From positions 1-34,496 of the forward strand of contig JAJYVI010000001.1 of the NCBI GenBank assembly GCA_021792115.1: a stretch of DNA of 34,496 nucleotides, in the 5' to 3' direction. The translations under genes were made by a program, and so were the position numbers. Below, in pieces: positions 11,119 through 19,096 of the stretch; position 1 is the first letter of the stretch, and each line of letters starts with the position of its first letter. The notes under the pieces are model-generated. The model was not told where the DNA came from, made no database searches, and was given only the letters and a program-made list of their open reading frames with translations. This DNA comes from Candidatus Micrarchaeota archaeon (GTDB lineage: Archaea; Micrarchaeota; Micrarchaeia; Micrarchaeales; Micrarchaeaceae).

Positions 11119-11583
11119 TTAGATATCGACTACTACTGTTGTACTGAAAAAATTCGTCTTAGCTGTTTTTTTCTTATTAGAAACCTTGAGCGCATACTTA
11201 GATATTCCCTTTACCTCTAATTTAAAGTATTGCCCTGTCCTTTTTTTTGATAATACAACTGATGAGAGGGCATATTTAGTGTTCCTGCCAGGTATAATTT
11301 TTATTTTTAGTAGATAGATATCAAAGCCAAACCTGTCTTTTGCATCGAGAATTGAAAGGCAGCTCTGCAGGAACTGCCAGAGAAGGTTTTCAAGCGTGTA
11401 TGCCTCCTCTTTTATAATTATTTTATAAGTCCTTGACTTCTCTGTCTTTACTTTTTTAATATCTGAAATAATATCAAAAAGAGCAAGGGCAGAATTTTTG
11501 AAGGCTTCTTCAGCAGATCCGCCGAATGCATTGAACTCTATGTCTGCTGTGTGATCAACATATTCATATTTTTTCCCACGCAT
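11119..11583 (-). CDS. Archease (activator of the RtcB tRNA ligase)
   Basis: 'YEYVDHTADIEFNAFGGSAEEAFKNSALAL' is the archease N-terminal signature (HTADi). Length 154 aa. Confidence 0.88.
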   Translation of the reverse strand: MRGKKYEYVDHTADIEFNAFGGSAEEAFKNSALALFDIISDIKKVKTEKSRTYKIIIKEEAYTLENLLWQFLQSCLSILDAKDRFGFDIYLLKIKIIPGRNTKYALSSVVLSKKRTGQYFKLEVKGISKYALKVSNKKKTAKTNFFSTTVVVDI

Positions 11584-11787
11584 AAACTCATTTATTATTT
11601 TGAATTTTTGTTTTATTTTTGTATTATTTGTATTTTATTTGTACTATTATTATTTCAAGTATTAAGATTATTTTAATATTTCAAACAAAATCAGTATAAA
11701 ATATATAATAAAATATAAAATAGATAAATGCAATACTAGAGCAAACAACAACAATGATCCAAAGTATGGATAAAATAAAGGTAAAGG

Positions 11788-11796
11788 ATATATAAT
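11788..11796 (+). promoter_or_regulatory. TATA box (ATATATAAT) for the box C/D sRNA
   Basis: It is centred about 26 nt upstream of the C box and 22 nt upstream of the terminal stem at 11814. A purine-rich AAAGG (BRE-like) precedes it. Confidence 0.5.
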
Positions 11797-11813
11797 ATGA
11801 TTCCGTATTATAT

Positions 11814-11875
11814 TTGTCCTATGATGACAAGAGTAACTACTGAATAATGATGATGCCCATTTCGACTGAGGACAA
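11814..11875 (+). ncRNA. Box C/D sRNA (2'-O-methylation guide)
   Basis: C box ATGATGA 11821-11827; 12-nt guide CAAGAGTAACTA; D' box CTGA 11840-11843; 3-nt linker ATA; C' box ATGATGA 11847-11853; 12-nt guide TGCCCATTTCGA; D box CTGA 11866-11869. A perfect 6-bp terminal stem TTGTCC (11814-11819) / GGACAA (11870-11875) flanks these. The spacing 12/3/12 is the canonical archaeal architecture. Confidence 0.85.
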
Positions 11876-11893
11876 TTATTTTGATGTGAAATA

Positions 11894-13516
11894 ATGACTG
11901 CAAAGCACCTAAAAGAAAAAAATAAAATGAAAATAAAAATAAATGAGAAGGTACAGACAAAGCAACATACAACAGTGCAAGAAAATAATAAAGGCAGTAA
12001 TAAGCTGCTTGGAATGCTTGTAGTAATTGCAGCATTTGGCATAGGCTCTTACAAGATTATATCTTCAACAGGCCTTAGCATACAAGATACAAATCCTTCA
12101 AGTTATATCATTGCAGTAATGCTTATGATTTTCCTTTTTCTTATATTTTCACTTAAAGAGAAGCTTGAATTTAAGCCGTCTGCAAGAAATATATTATTTG
12201 GAAGTGTTATACTTGCCATATATACAATCACAGTATCTTATCTAAAAGTAGCAACATCATTTATATTTTATCTTTATAGAATAGATGCACTCTTATTACC
12301 TATTTTCCTTTCAGCTCTAATACTTGTTATTTTTGGAATTGATGGAATTAAAAAGCTAAAATATGTTATAGTATACAGTGCTTTTGCATCGCCAATACTG
12401 CTTCTGCCTTTGCTTAATATAAATAGCCTTTTTACATTAGTCAATGCAAAATTCGTATTCTACATGCTTAGGATTATGCAAATCCCTGTTTCAAGCTCAG
12501 GCATAATGATTTCATTAGCATCAAATCCTGCAGCATCTATAATAATAGGTCAAACATGCACGGACATAGGTGCATTTATTGCGTTAGCTGCATTTCTACT
12601 GCCTATTGCATATTTATTTGATGGAAAGTTGAAAAGTAAGGTTCTATTTGTAATTATAGGCATTATTGCACTTGCAATTCTAAATGTAGCAAGAATGCTT
12701 ACAATAGCCTTTTCATGGTTTTATTATGGAATTTCAAATGCGCTTATGCTATTTCATGCATCTTCTGGTCCGATATTATTCTATGTTATACTAGCTGTAA
12801 TGATTATATTTTCATACAAGCTTGATTTATATGTACCAAAAATGAAGTATAATGAGATTGCAGTATCTGGTAAAAAGTATTTGCTGTCTGTGCATATATT
12901 AATTGCATTTGCTTTTGGGATTTTTAGCCTTGTTTTATTATCATCAAATGCAAACATAGGAATTCAACCAATGCATTTTAAAAACATACAAAATTCTACC
13001 AACAACCAGATAAATATGTCTACAGAAACTGAGATATTAAGTGTACTTAATGCGCATAACATTAAAGCTACACAGATAGGAATTATCAAGCTTAATAATA
13101 TAACAGGATTAGACATTGCACTAAATGGCAACTCAACAGCAGAAATAAATAATACCTATGTATTTCTGTCTACATCAAAAATAATTCCATCTCTTGTAAA
13201 GTCCGGATATCAATATGATCAATATAAATATATACTTAGAAATGGGATATCAGTTAATAACGAAGTTCTAAAAACATCTAATTATAGTCTTAGCATATCT
13301 GAATTTTCAGCACCAATAAATGCAAGCGGGACATACATACCTATTGACTTTTTAGTATTTGAAAATTACAGCTCTGCAAGATTTTGCCGCATAGACTATC
13401 AAAAAATAGGGTTGTCAAACTTTTTTGAATCAGAAATCTATAACATAATAAGGAGAAATAAAGTTAATAGTACTGCTCCATGCATTCCATATGTATTGGC
13501 TTCTATTTTTAAGTGA
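11894..13516 (+). CDS. Archaeosortase/exosortase (EpsH)-like polytopic membrane protein with an extra C-terminal extracytoplasmic domain
   Basis: There are about 8-9 TM helices. The ordered triad is Cys222 ('IIIGQTCTDIGAF', nt 12557-12559), Arg267 ('ILNVARMLTI') and His288 ('LFHASSGPILF'), matching the family pattern ..C(S)G.. / N..R / H...G..F. After a last TM (aa ~330-350) comes a ~190-aa Asn/Ser-rich domain. The start is uncertain (ATG 11894 or 11927). Confidence 0.6.
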   Translation: MTAKHLKEKNKMKIKINEKVQTKQHTTVQENNKGSNKLLGMLVVIAAFGIGSYKIISSTGLSIQDTNPSSYIIAVMLMIFLFLIFSLKEKLEFKPSARNILFGSVILAIYTITVSYLKVATSFIFYLYRIDALLLPIFLSALILVIFGIDGIKKLKYVIVYSAFASPILLLPLLNINSLFTLVNAKFVFYMLRIMQIPVSSSGIMISLASNPAASIIIGQTCTDIGAFIALAAFLLPIAYLFDGKLKSKVLFVIIGIIALAILNVARMLTIAFSWFYYGISNALMLFHASSGPILFYVILAVMIIFSYKLDLYVPKMKYNEIAVSGKKYLLSVHILIAFAFGIFSLVLLSSNANIGIQPMHFKNIQNSTNNQINMSTETEILSVLNAHNIKATQIGIIKLNNITGLDIALNGNSTAEINNTYVFLSTSKIIPSLVKSGYQYDQYKYILRNGISVNNEVLKTSNYSLSISEFSAPINASGTYIPIDFLVFENYSSARFCRIDYQKIGLSNFFESEIYNIIRRNKVNSTAPCIPYVLASIFK

Positions 13517-13582
13517 TTAACTCTTATGCTCTAATAAATTTATAGTCCTACCCATCAGCTATGTCTGCCTGTTGTTTGTTTT

Positions 13583-16500
13583 TTATGTAATAAAAATGCA
13601 TTTGCCTTTTTTAGATGCATAATTATTACAAGTAAGAAATATTATTATAACTAAAAGTATAGCAAATAGGACTATAATGGCTATTAATATTATTTGAACA
13701 TGCGACATAGCTGATGATAATGATAAGATGCTGCCTGTGTGCCCTGTGCTTTGTGAAGCGAGTGATGAAATAATAAGAGTATTTGCCACAGAATTTGCTG
13801 GCAGCTCTGTAGATATTGGTATCACATTTGAAGTTGAATTAATCTGCTTTTGGATAATATTAGAACTTATCGAATTTATTGCCGCAGTTAAGTTATTTTT
13901 TATAATTAGAATATTTGCAGAGGATATTTTTGTTGTTATATTGCTAAGACTTGGAGATGTAAAAGTAGGATTCTTTGAAAATATTCCTATTATTGGATCA
14001 CTTGGTACTAAAAATGAGACTGTACATGTTTGGGGATTCTGCACAGAAGCTATTTTTGACCATATCTTATTTACAAGCCTGAATACAGATATATTTGAAA
14101 TATTGCAAGGATATACAAATAGGCCATTTGTTGTTATATTCTGCTCTGTAGAAAAATTAAATGCTATGAGTTTTTTGTAGGTTCTATTTGTAATATTTTG
14201 TACAGATAGAGTTACATTTTTTATGCTTACTTTTACCTCCTTCCCTGTCCTGTTGTTTGACGTTAATTTGAATATTATATGCTCATTTGTGAAATTTATT
14301 GTAAATGGCACTGTTGAAATATTAAGGTAGTTTGAGTAAACAGAATTTGAAACAGTTATATTATGATATACTTTTAGATGGATTATTGGAGTTATTATAG
14401 TGGAATGAGGAGGTAGGCCTGATGCAGGCTGCTGCACAATAAGAGTCTCTGTTATTGAATTACCAGTGTAGTTTGCATTGCCAGAATTTGAGAAAGTGAG
14501 AATATAAGTTCCTGGAAGACCTTGTGTAGACCATGATGCTTGTGAAGATGTTGTAGAATAAAGTGCACCATTGACATATAATTTCCATGCAGACTGGTTG
14601 TTTAGTGTCTTCGTTCCTGTAAATGAGAATGTATCCCTTGTATAATATGGGCTTCCATATTGCCCATTGGAATTTGTGCCTGCTGCCCCAGAGGAATTCG
14701 AAAAAGAGTATAACGGGGCTGGAAGGGAATTTGAAATAACTGTTATATTTATTGGATCGTTATAAGGATATGGTGTTGTTGTGCCTATATCATTTGCAAG
14801 GAGATAAAGGATATAGTTTCCTACAGAGAAATAACCTCCTAAGGTCCGACTATTTTCTGCAATTATGCTGTTTGCTGCAGTTGATGTTGATGAAGCAAAA
14901 CTTGCAATTTGATTTTCTGAAAATACCTGGATGCCAGAGGGATCTGTTATTATCCAATTGTATGAAAATGGGCCTGTTCCTCCAACAGTATTTGCAGAAA
15001 TTGAAGGCAACACACCGTATATAACTGATAGTGGTTGTGAGGAACTTAGGGCATTGCTTAGATTTGCGTTTTGAATAGAATTAAGCGAAAGAATAGGCGC
15101 AGAATTAACTGTGATTGAAATCGTAATAGAATTTATAGGAGTTTCATATGTTGTAATAGAATCAAATAAAATACCATTAAACTGAATTGTATTTGATGAT
15201 ATTGAATTTACTATAAATGATATGGAATTATAATCCTCATTAGAAGGTATTATCACATTACTGCCCATTTGCCTGTTTCCTGTCACATTCCATAGCATTG
15301 CATTGAATGGTCCAGTGCCTTCTGTATCTGTTGTAAAATTTATTGTTTCAATCTGGCCTGAATCAAGCAAAGCGTTTGTTGCTGATATAAATATGCTAGG
15401 TGCTGCCTTCACTGTAAGGTAATCTGTCATAGAATATGCAGTTGTAGTAGATGTTGCTGAGTCTATTATGATATAACAATAATAGGCATTGATATATAAT
15501 GGAGGTGTTGTATAAATTTGAGAGGTTGCACCGTTTATAAGTGTATCTGATATAGAGCAGTTTCCTGCTGAGGGAGCAGTATACCACTGATAGGTATAAG
15601 GTGCTGTTCCACCTACTGGGTTGGCAGTAAGAGTAATAGAATAGCCCTTGTCTATAATAGGCGTAAGGGGTTCTACCGCAGCCGCATTTAATTCGTTGTT
15701 TACAATGATTGTGTTCTGCAATGAATTAAAAATAAATGGTTGAGCAGTTCCAGTGTCATATGCAATTGCATTGAATTCAAATACATTTGCAGAAGTCAAG
15801 GAATTAACTATGAATGAGACTACATTGCTTCCACTTAGCTGTATTATTACATTACTGCCCATTTGCCTGTTTCCTGTCACATTCCATAGCATTGCATTGA
15901 ATGGCCCTGTTCCATTTGAAACACTTAATACATAAGTTTCTATCTGGTTTGAATCAAGCAAAATATTACTTGGAGATAAATATATTATTGGTGCAGGATT
16001 CACTGTTATTACTGGTGTTGCTACTGTATAACTTTCTGGAGTTGTGGCAGAATCTGTTATTGTTGCAGAAAATTCACACGTCGCAGATGATGCTGTAGAT
16101 GGATAATATATAAAAGAGGTAACATTACCAGGACTGCTGAATCCAGGGCAAGAATATCCATTTGCAATTGACCAGGAATAGGTATACGGTGATGTACCTG
16201 TTGTTGGTATGCTTATACTTATAGGATAGGACTGCCCTGAATCAATAGTCACTATAGATAACGGGGATGTAATTGATGTTGGGGTAAGAGCAGAATTTAT
16301 AACAATATTATAATTGTAGCTATCTGGCAAGGCATTTATAGTTATAGAAGATGGTGGGCGCGGAGGCGGAGGCGGATGGGGAGGCGGATGGGGAGGCGAA
16401 TCTTTCTCATAAATTCTAACGCTATAATTACCTGCAATATTAGTAAAATTGAAATTAAGCACGCTGCTTGGCGATGAAGACAATGTTTGGGGCAGAGCAT

Positions 16501-16903
16501 TTGAAGATATAGAGTTATAGATTAATACATTCATTACTGTTGCCTGCATTGCATTTATACTGAATCCAATAGTGTTATATGCAAGTACAGTTAATGAACT
16601 GTTGTAACTTCTAGTTCCATTATAAATAGATATATATGCAGAATATGGTAGGTAGCTGGATCCTGAAATTGCGTTTGCAAATTCTATTGTTGTAATTTGA
16701 CCTATGTCAAGTACAGTGTTTGAAACAAATGAGGTGCAAATTGTATTTGTAACTCCAGGAGCTAAAGAGGATGAAACTGGCGGAGGACATTGGCCAGAAA
16801 ATGGATTATTAGTACTATATGTGCTTGAAAATTGACTGATACTAAGCGCAAATAAAATTAAAATTATTTTAAATATTTTAACTATTCCGCATACCCCCAC
16901 CAC
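13583..16903 (-). CDS. Giant secreted/cell-surface protein (S-layer- or adhesin-like) with Ig-like repeats and a C-terminal TM anchor or sorting signal
   Basis: 1106 aa with a GTG start. Signal peptide 'IVKIFKIILILFALSISQFSS'. Pro hinge PPHPPPHPPPPPRPP. Five modules carry G-T-x-P-[YF]-x-x-x-W (GTSPYTYSW, GTGPFNAMLW x2, GGTAPYTYQW, GGTGPFSYNW). More than 25 N-x-S/T sequons by eye. The C-terminus is an S/T/N-rich linker, the hydrophobic helix 'VQIILIAIIVLFAILLVIIIFLT' and the basic tail 'CNNYASKKGKCIFIT'. Confidence 0.8.
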   Translation of the reverse strand: MVGVCGIVKIFKIILILFALSISQFSSTYSTNNPFSGQCPPPVSSSLAPGVTNTICTSFVSNTVLDIGQITTIEFANAISGSSYLPYSAYISIYNGTRSYNSSLTVLAYNTIGFSINAMQATVMNVLIYNSISSNALPQTLSSSPSSVLNFNFTNIAGNYSVRIYEKDSPPHPPPHPPPPPRPPSSITINALPDSYNYNIVINSALTPTSITSPLSIVTIDSGQSYPISISIPTTGTSPYTYSWSIANGYSCPGFSSPGNVTSFIYYPSTASSATCEFSATITDSATTPESYTVATPVITVNPAPIIYLSPSNILLDSNQIETYVLSVSNGTGPFNAMLWNVTGNRQMGSNVIIQLSGSNVVSFIVNSLTSANVFEFNAIAYDTGTAQPFIFNSLQNTIIVNNELNAAAVEPLTPIIDKGYSITLTANPVGGTAPYTYQWYTAPSAGNCSISDTLINGATSQIYTTPPLYINAYYCYIIIDSATSTTTAYSMTDYLTVKAAPSIFISATNALLDSGQIETINFTTDTEGTGPFNAMLWNVTGNRQMGSNVIIPSNEDYNSISFIVNSISSNTIQFNGILFDSITTYETPINSITISITVNSAPILSLNSIQNANLSNALSSSQPLSVIYGVLPSISANTVGGTGPFSYNWIITDPSGIQVFSENQIASFASSTSTAANSIIAENSRTLGGYFSVGNYILYLLANDIGTTTPYPYNDPINITVISNSLPAPLYSFSNSSGAAGTNSNGQYGSPYYTRDTFSFTGTKTLNNQSAWKLYVNGALYSTTSSQASWSTQGLPGTYILTFSNSGNANYTGNSITETLIVQQPASGLPPHSTIITPIIHLKVYHNITVSNSVYSNYLNISTVPFTINFTNEHIIFKLTSNNRTGKEVKVSIKNVTLSVQNITNRTYKKLIAFNFSTEQNITTNGLFVYPCNISNISVFRLVNKIWSKIASVQNPQTCTVSFLVPSDPIIGIFSKNPTFTSPSLSNITTKISSANILIIKNNLTAAINSISSNIIQKQINSTSNVIPISTELPANSVANTLIISSLASQSTGHTGSILSLSSAMSHVQIILIAIIVLFAILLVIIIFLTCNNYASKKGKCIFIT
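15247..15310 (-). repeat. Intragenic near-identical repeat, copy A (within the surface-protein gene)
   Basis: 64 bp match 15841-15904 with one mismatch; 56 bp (15255-15310) are exact. The offset is 594 bp, which is 198 codons. It encodes GTGPFNAMLWNVTGNRQMGSNVII. Confidence 0.9.
15841..15904 (-). repeat. Intragenic near-identical repeat, copy B
   Basis: See copy A. The exact 56-bp identity covers 15849-15904. Confidence 0.9.
16352..16396 (-). repeat. GC-rich micro-tandem repeat encoding the proline hinge PPHPPPHPPPPPRPP
   Basis: On the + strand it reads ...GGCGGATGGGGA GGCGGATGGGGA..., a 12-bp unit repeated twice and flanked by GGAGGCGGA variants. It is the only strongly GC-rich island in an AT-rich gene. 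Confidence 0.85.
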
Positions 16904-17254: not shown

Positions 17255-19096
17255 TTATTCAAAGTCTTCCTGCTTTATGTTGTAATCATTGAGTAGCCTT
17301 TTTTTGCTGATTTTTGTAGGAGCAGAATCCAAAAGTGATTCTTGCTTGTGATTCTTTGGAAAGAGAATAAAATCCCGTATATTCTCGCTATTGAGCAGAG
17401 TTGATATAAATCTGTCAAGACCTAGAGCTATGCCCCCGTGTATTGGTGCACCATAAGATAATGCATCTATAAGAAACCCGAATGTGTTGGTTATTGCATT
17501 CTGATCCATTCCTATAACAGATAGAGATTTTTTTTGAAGCTCGGAATCATGTATCCTGATGCTGCCGCCGCCTATTTCTTCACCGTTGAGTACAATGTCG
17601 TACTGTCTTGCAATTACTTTTTCAGGCTCTGACTCAAGATATTTTTCAGTATCTTTTGTTGGAGCTGTAAATGGATTGTGAGCCGGCTTTAATTTGCCTG
17701 TAACTTCATCTTTGTCAAAAAGAGGGAAATCTGTAATCCATGCAAATGCGTATTCTTTATCGTATTTTTGCAATTTATCTCCAATAAGCTTTCTTAATTT
17801 TCCAAGCGCTTCGAGAAGCAAATTCTCTGATAGGTCAGATCCTATTATTATTATATCTCCGTCATGTAAATTCATTCTCTGCATTAAGATATCGCAAACG
17901 CTGCTTCCTATTGACTCTGAAATAGACATTGGATCTGATTCAATTTTATCATGCGCAACATAAAGCCATGTAAGACCTTTAAGCCCTAGCCCTTTTGCTA
18001 CCTCTATCAATTTCAGCATGTATTGCTTATTAAGCCTGCTGCTCCCTGAATTATCACTGAAATCAGCAGAAAATGCAACAGCTTTTACAAATCCATTGCT
18101 CTCTATAATTCTCTTTAGCACATTATAATTAGATGATTTCATCTCCTCTGTTATGTCAAATATTTGACTGTTGAATCTAAGATCTGGTTTATCAGACCCA
18201 TATTTTTCCATTGCTGTTTTGTATTGCAGCTCTGGGAAATCAATATTTGTATTGTTATTGAGCACCTGCTTAAATACCACTCTTATCAGCTCTTCTATAA
18301 GGCCTTTTATATATTTTTCATCCTTGAAACTCACTTCAATATCAACTTGCGTGAACTCAGGCTGCCTATCTATTCTCTGATCCTCATCCCTATAGCACCG
18401 TGCTATCTGAAAATATTTATCAATTCCTCCTACCATACAGAGCTGCTTATACAGCTGAGGCGATTGCGCAAGAGAGTAATATGTATTCTTAATTAACCTT
18501 GAGGGAACAAGAAAGGTCCTTGACCCTGTTTCATATGTGTCTTTAACAAGAGTAGGTGTTTCAAGTTCCATGAACCCATTATCCCAAAAATATTTACGTA
18601 TCTGCTTTGTAATTCTGTCGCGGAATTCAATGTTCTTTATCATTTGCCGCCTCCTTAAGTCTAAATACCTAAACTTCATACGCAAGTCCTCATTCGCAAG
18701 GCTTCTGCTTTTCTCATCAATAAGCTCGAATGGGGGCATCAATGATTTGTTTATTACCTCAAATTTTTCTACGAATATTTCAACATTGCCTGTAGTAATT
18801 GAGTTATCTACAGTATCCTCGTCTCTTTTCTTGACATTTCCGAAGACTTGTATTACATATTCCTTGCCTAATGTATCTGCAAGTTTCTTTACCTGCGACT
18901 CAAAAACTAGCTGGGTTTCACCGAACCTGTCGCTCAAATCTATAAACAGCTTTCCGCCATGATCTCTGATTCGCCTACACCAACCATAGGCTCTAACGTA
19001 TTTTCCTATAAAGGTTTCGTCCAGCTGCCCACAGTTTATTAATTCATAATTCAAAAAAAACACCGGTACACAATCAGTCTTATTTGCCTGCAACAA
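17255..19096 (-). CDS. aspS: Aspartyl-tRNA synthetase, bacterial type (with GAD insertion domain)
   Basis: 613 aa. 'FIDLSDRFGETQLVF'; motif 2 region 'QSPQLYKQLCMVGGIDKYFQIARCYRDEDQRIDRQPEFTQVDIEVSF', which is the bacterial CFRDED.R.DRQPEFTQ pattern rather than the archaeal FRAE type. A ~130-aa insertion precedes motif 3 'GGIALGLDRFISTLL'. Confidence 0.92.
   Translation of the reverse strand: MLQANKTDCVPVFFLNYELINCGQLDETFIGKYVRAYGWCRRIRDHGGKLFIDLSDRFGETQLVFESQVKKLADTLGKEYVIQVFGNVKKRDEDTVDNSITTGNVEIFVEKFEVINKSLMPPFELIDEKSRSLANEDLRMKFRYLDLRRRQMIKNIEFRDRITKQIRKYFWDNGFMELETPTLVKDTYETGSRTFLVPSRLIKNTYYSLAQSPQLYKQLCMVGGIDKYFQIARCYRDEDQRIDRQPEFTQVDIEVSFKDEKYIKGLIEELIRVVFKQVLNNNTNIDFPELQYKTAMEKYGSDKPDLRFNSQIFDITEEMKSSNYNVLKRIIESNGFVKAVAFSADFSDNSGSSRLNKQYMLKLIEVAKGLGLKGLTWLYVAHDKIESDPMSISESIGSSVCDILMQRMNLHDGDIIIIGSDLSENLLLEALGKLRKLIGDKLQKYDKEYAFAWITDFPLFDKDEVTGKLKPAHNPFTAPTKDTEKYLESEPEKVIARQYDIVLNGEEIGGGSIRIHDSELQKKSLSVIGMDQNAITNTFGFLIDALSYGAPIHGGIALGLDRFISTLLNSENIRDFILFPKNHKQESLLDSAPTKISKKRLLNDYNIKQEDFE

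Follow-up and report, generated by a model that had tools for sequence, protein, structure and literature searches.

Does an archaeosortase-like enzyme encoded beside a giant surface protein act on that neighbour, or do the two genes simply lie next to each other? The question is raised by a stretch of 34,496 nucleotides from a Candidatus Micrarchaeota archaeon (contig JAJYVI010000001.1, assembly GCA_021792115.1), referred to here in its full length as the window, in which open reading frames (ORFs) for a 540-amino-acid (aa) polytopic membrane protein and a 1106-aa secreted protein converge across 66 bp. Both ORFs were found as an earlier inspection of the DNA (the sequence-only reading) had given them, and that reading took them for a dedicated sortase–substrate pair using a previously undescribed recognition signal. 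The present analysis leads to another answer. The sortase and the giant protein are probably two separate things encoded side by side, their adjacency being incidental and involving no operon-like pairing.

The family assignment of the 540-aa protein, proposed by the sequence-only reading, was borne out by profile hidden Markov model (HMM) searches, as it scores 64.9 bits against Pfam Exosortase_EpsH (PF09721; curated cut-off 25.7) and 39.1 bits against NCBIfam TIGR04178 (cut-off 23). All 15 database homologues searched match PF09721 and the NCBIfam XrtW, XrtA and exo_archaeo (TIGR04178) models, and existing pipeline annotation already describes some homologues as 'exosortase/archaeosortase family protein'. 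The named Xrt models score far under their cut-offs with the window protein (XrtA 45.8 against 208 bits, XrtW 38 against 425, and XrtD 23.5 against 400), and the best-scoring of them are bacterial types. None of the archaeal models ArtA–ArtG matches the window protein at E ≤ 10, and ArtA, ArtB, ArtD, ArtE, ArtF and ArtG match none of the 15 relatives at E ≤ 0.01; ArtC is weakly matched by three of the 15 (best E 1e-6). With subfamilies defined by the NCBIfam models and by reviews, the protein is an exosortase/archaeosortase-family member in an unnamed Micrarchaeota subfamily that is covered by no named model.

The residues expected for such an enzyme are present and conserved. C222 in IIIGQTCTDIGAF, R267 in ILNVARMLTI and H288 in LFHASSGPILF lie at the positions claimed for them, and in an alignment of 47 distinct full-length relatives (32–85% identical) the Cys, Arg and His are 100% conserved. 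N264 is likewise invariant, together with several core positions occupied by Gly, Pro or aromatic residues. The residues following the Cys vary across the subfamily (T-C-[TAV]-[DPSNG]-[ILV]-G), the canonical exosortase motif being CSG. In ArtA of Haloferax volcanii, the critical residues are Cys173, Arg214 and Arg253 (PMC9263693), and the distance from Cys to the first Arg is 41 residues there versus 45 in the Micrarchaeota sortase. If the enzyme works as ArtA does, Cys222 would attack a peptide bond of the substrate at the outer face of the membrane, with Arg267 and His288 (together with Asn264) supporting the attack, and the resulting acyl-enzyme would be resolved by a lipid or some other nucleophile.

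An AlphaFold2 model of the sortase (predicted local distance difference test, pLDDT, 75; predicted template modelling score 0.75) shows a helical bundle and, beyond a Lys-rich loop, an extra helix (aa 328–348) and an α/β domain (aa 375–537). Residues 1–34 are modelled with pLDDT < 50, and the N-terminal extension to which they belong occurs only in the closest relatives, since proteins of less than about 40% identity begin near residue 30–37 of the alignment (A1). The helix positions in the model, the Lys-rich, positive-inside loops at aa 242–249 and 310–327, and a presumably glycosylated ectodomain are together consistent with a placement of C222, R267 and H288 in the outer half of the membrane.

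The additional transmembrane (TM) helix and the sequon-rich C-terminal ectodomain of about 190 aa, to which the sequence-only reading had drawn attention, are kept in all relatives of the sortase. All nine N-x-S/T sequons of the protein fall inside this 192-aa domain, for which composition predicts 4.2 ± 1.8, and C498 occurs in every one of the 47 aligned sequences, with C530 and G451 conserved in at least 95%. The likeness to an EpsH–EpsI fusion suggested earlier was not recovered: EpsI/DUF3485 similarity was not detected for the domain, PF11984 and TIGR02914 being absent at E ≤ 10 from the window protein and at E ≤ 1 from 15 relatives, and an identity with EpsI was rejected. Nor did the ectodomain match anything in Pfam and NCBIfam, and a Foldseek search of the PDB gave nothing at E ≤ 1e-3 (top match LpqN, E 0.05); sequence searches found no solved structure of a sortase relative. 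A remote fold relationship to EpsI is possible. The fused helix and ectodomain, the latter probably disulfide-bonded and N-glycosylated, form a subfamily-specific accessory, possibly for substrate handling.

Whether this enzyme is tied to the giant protein can be judged from its distribution. A scan covering one genome per GTDB species found 52 sortase loci, all titled Micrarchaeota, Micrarchaeia, Micrarchaeaceae or 'Marsarchaeota' save one 'Acidoferrum' contig, and most of them give a full-length match that includes the C-terminal domain. An archease gene lies divergently upstream of the sortase in 50 of the 52 loci by tblastn (41/47 by ORF clustering), a pairing that reflects either a bidirectional promoter shared by the two genes or, in genomes this small, a gene order that has become frozen. 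Next to the sortase on the downstream side, 32 of 47 loci have a gene in the same orientation for a fusion of NUDIX and uracil-DNA-glycosylase (UDG) domains, and the gene for the tRNA synthetase AspRS lies further on. The NUDIX-UDG gene is missing from the clade of the window, where the order is tRNA-splicing endonuclease, archease, sortase, AspRS and GatB/A/C.

A gene for the giant protein stands between sortase and AspRS only in the window, in locus L006 (sortase 85% identical) and in L001/L009 (75%), the last two being the same contig read twice. The loci L002, L007 and L008, with sortases 47–49% identical, have identical flanks without it, and there AspRS follows directly, roughly 10–40 bp from the sortase stop codon. 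Present in the former and absent from the latter, the giant gene is adjacent to the sortase through a clade-specific insertion and not through conserved pairing; the surface-protein gene would have been inserted between sortase and AspRS in one narrow clade. Vertical inheritance of the sortase gene within a conserved housekeeping gene order, next to an unpaired, inserted neighbour, is the best joint explanation of these arrangements and is, on balance, probably correct.

Several side observations concern these loci. The divergent archease and sortase genes are mostly about 100–400 bp apart, and the pair is kept down to 32% sortase identity. The NUDIX-UDG fusion gene occupies positions 11533–12498 of L004, and starts a few bases after the sortase in L004 and L005. 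The contig titled 'Candidatus Acidoferrum sp.' (L050; DATJLP010000006.1) has the archease–sortase–AspRS synteny of Micrarchaeota and was probably mis-binned, and the same Micrarchaeota-type synteny in metagenome-assembled genomes (MAGs) titled 'Marsarchaeota' (among L009, L036, L040 and L046) suggests inconsistent naming. In L001, a run of N at 11563–12068 masks the sortase gene and that of the giant protein's orthologue at their 3' ends, which explains the 'partial' label of the protein P0004.

A dedicated, co-evolving pair with a new signal, made up of the stretch SLSSAMSHVQ, the helix and the tail CNNYASKKGKCIFIT, has in its favour that the genes are convergent and only 66 bp apart, that the arrangement is repeated in L006 and L001/L009, and that the pattern GSIL...S.S..QII before the helix is common to the three orthologues. 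The repetition extends, however, only to relatives with sortases of 75% identity or more, and the sortase is otherwise conserved among the 52 species without the giant, so that the pairing covers, besides the window itself, only L006 and L009/L001 of the 52 loci. The pre-helix stretch is conserved no better than the remainder of the protein (about 75–80% identical), and the tail, which is the least conserved part in the three giant-protein orthologues, is not conserved at all and is not kept in P0016 and P0152. The motif occurs in no other retrieved protein.

The giant protein has much of the architecture that the sequence-only reading ascribed to it: the signal-like segment, the poly-proline hinge, the five repeats and the succession of linker, helix and tail were all found. 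The sequons, said to exceed 25, number 29, as against 26.5 ± 3.9 in composition-matched shuffles, and so reflect richness in N, S and T and no specific excess. The five repeats (aa 205–723) carry a G-x-G/S-P-[YF]-x-[YW] motif and were delimited by eye because a self-BLAST of the protein gave no off-diagonal high-scoring segment pairs. SprB repeat matches are weak and sub-threshold, and the database matches of the protein are mostly confined to these Ig/SprB-like repeats. The segments aa 301–400 and 500–600 (window positions about 15704–16003 and 15104–15406, minus strand) share a long identical stretch, GTGPFNAMLWNVTGNRQMGSNVII, which points to a recent duplication within the gene. The 75%-identical orthologue of L001 lacks the poly-proline hinge, PPHPPPHPPPPPRPP, which on that comparison is not a conserved element but a recent indel.

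What could be of wider relevance is the domain near the C-terminus of the giant protein. An alignment of 21 sequences (A2) gave the consensus Y-P-C ... C-T-V-S-F-x-x-P-x-D-P-I-I-G-[IL]-F with two invariant Cys, and the module was modelled as a confident β-sandwich (pLDDT 83.6, core > 90) in which DPIIGIF forms the last strand, 95 residues upstream of the TM helix. It has no significant structural neighbour in the PDB, and the 21 sequences share no family in Pfam and NCBIfam, where scattered single-member matches appeared at E > 0.001, TIGR04213 not among them. With clustering at 50% identity, an exhaustive profile search of representatives retrieved 523 clusters under a threshold of E ≤ 1e-3 and 469 under the stricter one of E ≤ 1e-10, while a word-indexed database search with A2 had returned a single fragment. 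All named members come from Micrarchaeota, Micrarchaeaceae or 'Marsarchaeota' MAGs. This work thus defines a C-terminal domain family, so far without annotation, in the surface proteins of Micrarchaeota.

The C-termini of this family are stereotyped in their order of parts. Of 172 members retrieved, 166 continue beyond the module with a linker, then a TM helix and then a basic tail; the linker has a median of 33 aa (T 23%, S 14%, P 11%) and the tail a median of 10.5 aa (10th–90th percentile 5–34, minimum 3, maximum 255), the helix often ends in Tyr, and the first eight tail positions are 60% basic. As a side observation, the proteins that carry the module are large surface proteins, and it nearly always stands about 55–75 residues before their C-terminal end. 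The giant protein is atypical for the family, having a 95-aa linker rich in S, N and I and a tail with three Lys only.

A recognition signal was sought in these C-termini. No signature motif was found at the TM edge of 162 non-redundant members, positional information reaching at most 1.4 bits, and Gibbs sampling returned only the hydrophobic start and, at distances that vary, a diffuse pattern rich in P, S and Q and of low information. This pattern, 6–13 residues before the helix, scores 5.95 versus 4.1–4.5 in shuffled controls. Ten C-termini (the window protein and nine members) all stayed below cut-off with the curated sorting-signal (CTERM) models and showed generic helix similarity only. 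The statement that the giant protein has no PGF, PEF, PIP or VPXXXP signal accordingly holds, no NCBIfam family being found on the full protein and no CTERM cut-off being reached. The resemblance of one segment to the PGF-pre-PGF domain did not hold, as TIGR04213 misses the window protein and all 21 module sequences. An identity of the C-terminus with PGF-pre-PGF/PGF-CTERM was also rejected, there being no HMM matches and the PGF-like string being a β-strand far from the helix. The previously undescribed signal likewise found no support in the 162 C-termini, which have no TM-boundary motif and tails of widely varying length. With the pairing restricted to one clade, no signature motif at the scale of the family, and the PGF-like string accounted for as a β-strand, the proposal of a dedicated pair with a new signal fails, and it is regarded as very improbable.

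The giant protein is therefore described as a lineage-specific surface glycoprotein whose gene is a recent insertion, and it is most likely retained as a type-I membrane anchor. It begins with a signal peptide, five Ig-like repeats and the β-sandwich module, after which a stalk leads to its single TM helix and the basic tail, and it would stay anchored in the membrane by that helix.

Three points weigh against a complete separation of sortase and giant protein. The module family and the sortase subfamily are both confined, by their named members, to Micrarchaeota-type MAGs. The module family is stereotyped and, with 523 clusters against 52 loci (unlike counts that give only a rough guide of about ten per locus), has a many-to-one relation resembling that of exosortase substrates. 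Finally, a conserved sortase, apparently active as judged from its residues, must have substrates, and no better candidates were found.

These points lead to another arrangement, in which the sortase processes the whole module family, including the giant, through a degenerate feature, such as the P/S-rich segment, the helix and the aromatic–basic border, the adjacency of the two genes still being incidental. Such a many-to-one system at the level of the class would account for the shared occurrence of both families, for the stereotyped C-termini with their aromatic helix ends, and for the P/S/Q-rich pattern that outscores shuffled controls, and the invariant triad suggests that the enzyme would probably be active. 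The order of domain, Thr-rich linker and anchor parallels that of PGF-pre-PGF plus PGF-CTERM in their TIGRFAMs description. To our knowledge, however, every described exosortase, archaeosortase, rhombosortase and myxosortase signal has a near-invariant short motif, and such a motif is absent here. Tails of 3 to more than 50 residues (11/162 exceeding 50) are also unlike cleavable signals, gene linkage is not seen beyond one narrow clade, and C-terminal TM anchors after glycosylated stalks are common in archaea without archaeosortases. This system is considered unlikely, and incidental adjacency of an unpaired sortase and an anchored surface protein continues to be preferred.

Substrates could also be encoded elsewhere, for example a Micrarchaeota S-layer protein or a small, unrecognised CTERM class, in which case the giant would be irrelevant to the sortase. 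The sortase stands in a conserved housekeeping order at every locus examined, and the anchoring of the S-layer protein of Ca. Micrarchaeum harzensis is explicitly unresolved, with lipid modification discussed (bioRxiv 10.1101/2021.04.28.441871). The same paper, however, considers for that protein only a signal peptide or TM segment at the N-terminus and mentions none at the C-terminus (bioRxiv 10.1101/2021.04.28.441871). The 964 kb of Micrarchaeota DNA around the sortase genes, a sample weighted toward a single genomic region, showed no candidate CTERM class. A scan of it for ORFs that begin with a signal-like segment and end in a helix plus a short tail gave one other candidate, in L011, and a scan of the window gave none besides the giant. 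An HMM of the giant's module found no further copy in the 964 kb. Substrates of this kind are held to be improbable as the explanation, and the separate, incidental placement of the two genes remains the preferred one.

Some individual candidates were discarded. Large proteins encoded near the sortase in L029 (12521–15391 and 15961–18204) and in L054 (6798–7691) are type-IV-pilin-like and without C-terminal anchors; their N-termini are class III signal-like, and their bodies are of Laminin_G type by analogy with annotations in L058 and L060. The large sortase neighbours in L025, L036 and L052 also lack a C-terminal anchor, and the larger neighbours outside the window are either pilin-like or cytoplasmic. 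Seven module proteins were traced to their assemblies (JAMCSO, JAVYXP, JAJZNR, JAMCZM, JAGWHN, DAHUZX and DAHWZM), none of which coincides with the 52 sortase assemblies, these being species representatives only. In L059, a gene for a Rce1/CPBP-like intramembrane protease (2168–2866) lies about 2 kb upstream of the module-family protein P0059. Myxosortase is itself a member of the CPBP protease family (PMC11980579), so that proteases of this family are a second candidate for processing the C-termini.

Micrarchaeota belong to the DPANN archaea, have reduced genomes and depend on a host, with which their surface proteins probably mediate contact. Full-text literature searches found no paper substantively linking archaeosortases or exosortases with Micrarchaeota or DPANN, and archaeosortases have been described from a subset of Euryarchaeota, with subfamilies ArtA–ArtE that have distinct signals (PMC6098224). 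An archaeosortase-family enzyme that appears active from its conserved residues, and that is present in 52 species representatives, is a useful lead for work with the Ca. Micrarchaeum harzensis co-culture. Should this phylum-specific sortase subfamily serve as the common maturation or anchoring enzyme of the module family, as is considered unlikely, exosortase-type sorting would be known for the first time without a short motif, and DPANN cells would have a means of fixing host-contact proteins to the membrane.

The positions of the features are collected in Table 1. A further ORF of 124 aa (11668–12042, minus strand) overlaps the start of the sortase in antisense; it lies in AT-rich intergenic DNA, its translation is low-complexity and hydrophobic, and it is probably not a gene.

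Table 1. Window coordinates of the sortase, the giant surface protein, their parts and the flanking genes.
Feature	Coordinates	Strand	Basis
540-aa exosortase/archaeosortase-family protein, Micrarchaeota subfamily	11894..13516	+	PF09721 and TIGR04178 profile matches
Sortase, Lys-rich N-terminal extension, aa 1–36, probably cytoplasmic	11894..12001	+	alignment A1, pLDDT
Sortase, EpsH-type polytopic core, aa 74–306	12113..12811	+	extent of Pfam match
Sortase, Cys222 codon, putative catalytic nucleophile at start of a TM helix	12557..12559	+	conservation; helix start in model, aa 218–225
Sortase, Asn264...Arg267 (N-x-x-R)	12683..12694	+	conservation of both residues
Sortase, His288 codon	12755..12757	+	conservation
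Sortase, additional TM helix, aa 328–348, after Lys-rich loop	12875..12937	+	model and hydropathy
Sortase, C-terminal α/β ectodomain, aa 349–540, 9 sequons, conserved C498 and C530	12938..13513	+	alignment, model, sequon count
66-bp spacer between convergent stop codons	13517..13582	none	
1106-aa secreted N/S/T-rich repeat protein, GTG start, C-terminal TM anchor	13583..16903	-	
Giant protein, cytoplasmic tail CNNYASKKGKCIFIT, aa 1092–1106	13586..13630	-	sequence
Giant protein, C-terminal TM helix IILIAIIVLFAILLVIIIFLT, aa 1071–1091 (21 aa)	13631..13693	-	hydropathy
Giant protein, S/T/N-rich linker or stalk, aa 976–1070	13694..13978	-	
Giant protein, β-sandwich module, aa 826–975, two invariant Cys, final strand DPIIGIF	13979..14428	-	alignment A2, model
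Giant protein, five Ig/SprB-like repeats, aa 205–723	14735..16291	-	boundaries by eye, weak SprB matches
Giant protein, poly-proline hinge PPHPPPHPPPPPRPP, aa 170–184	16352..16396	-	sequence
Giant protein, signal-like hydrophobic N-terminal segment, about aa 1–28	16820..16903	-	hydropathy and sequence
Archease gene, divergent neighbour of sortase	11119..11583	-	Pfam Archease annotated on L001 orthologue
AspRS-type tRNA synthetase, conserved downstream flank	17255..19096	-	

Among known systems, ArtA of Haloferax volcanii with its PGF-CTERM substrates is close to the Micrarchaeota sortase in several respects. Both enzymes belong to the PF09721/TIGR04178 superfamily and have an archaeal host, both have a Cys followed by an Arg some 41–45 residues on, and in both cases the genome that encodes the enzyme also has genes for surface glycoproteins with a Thr/Ser-rich stalk. 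They differ in the third conserved residue, which is His288 here and the critical Arg253 in ArtA, and in the candidate substrates, from which PGF or any other signature is absent. The extra helix and ectodomain are unmatched by any NCBIfam archaeosortase model. In length and layout, the sortase resembles the bacterial XrtW and XrtD types and EpsH–EpsI fusions, all of about 490–540 aa with a core followed by a C-terminal extension. The XrtW model (NF038142, 494 positions) matches 15 of 15 relatives (best E 5e-17), and that of XrtD (TIGR04152) has 486 positions. The sortase, however, aligns by its core alone, at positions 7–260 of the 494, and it differs from the bacterial exosortases in its archaeal host and in that PEP-CTERM-type targets were not seen.

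Two comparisons concern the giant protein. Euryarchaeal proteins with PGF-pre-PGF and PGF-CTERM have their parts in the same order, with a β-rich domain leading through a Ser/Thr-rich linker to a helix and a basic tail, but the TIGR04213 and PGF-CTERM models miss the window protein and the 21 module members, and DPIIGIF is internal, 95 residues from the helix. Plain type-I anchored surface proteins of archaea, such as the SlaB-type stalks of Sulfolobales, share with the giant protein a signal peptide, a β-rich domain, a Ser/Thr-rich stalk, a helix and a variable, positive-inside tail. The likeness drawn here is one of architecture. The β-sandwich module of the giant is a separate, unannotated family.

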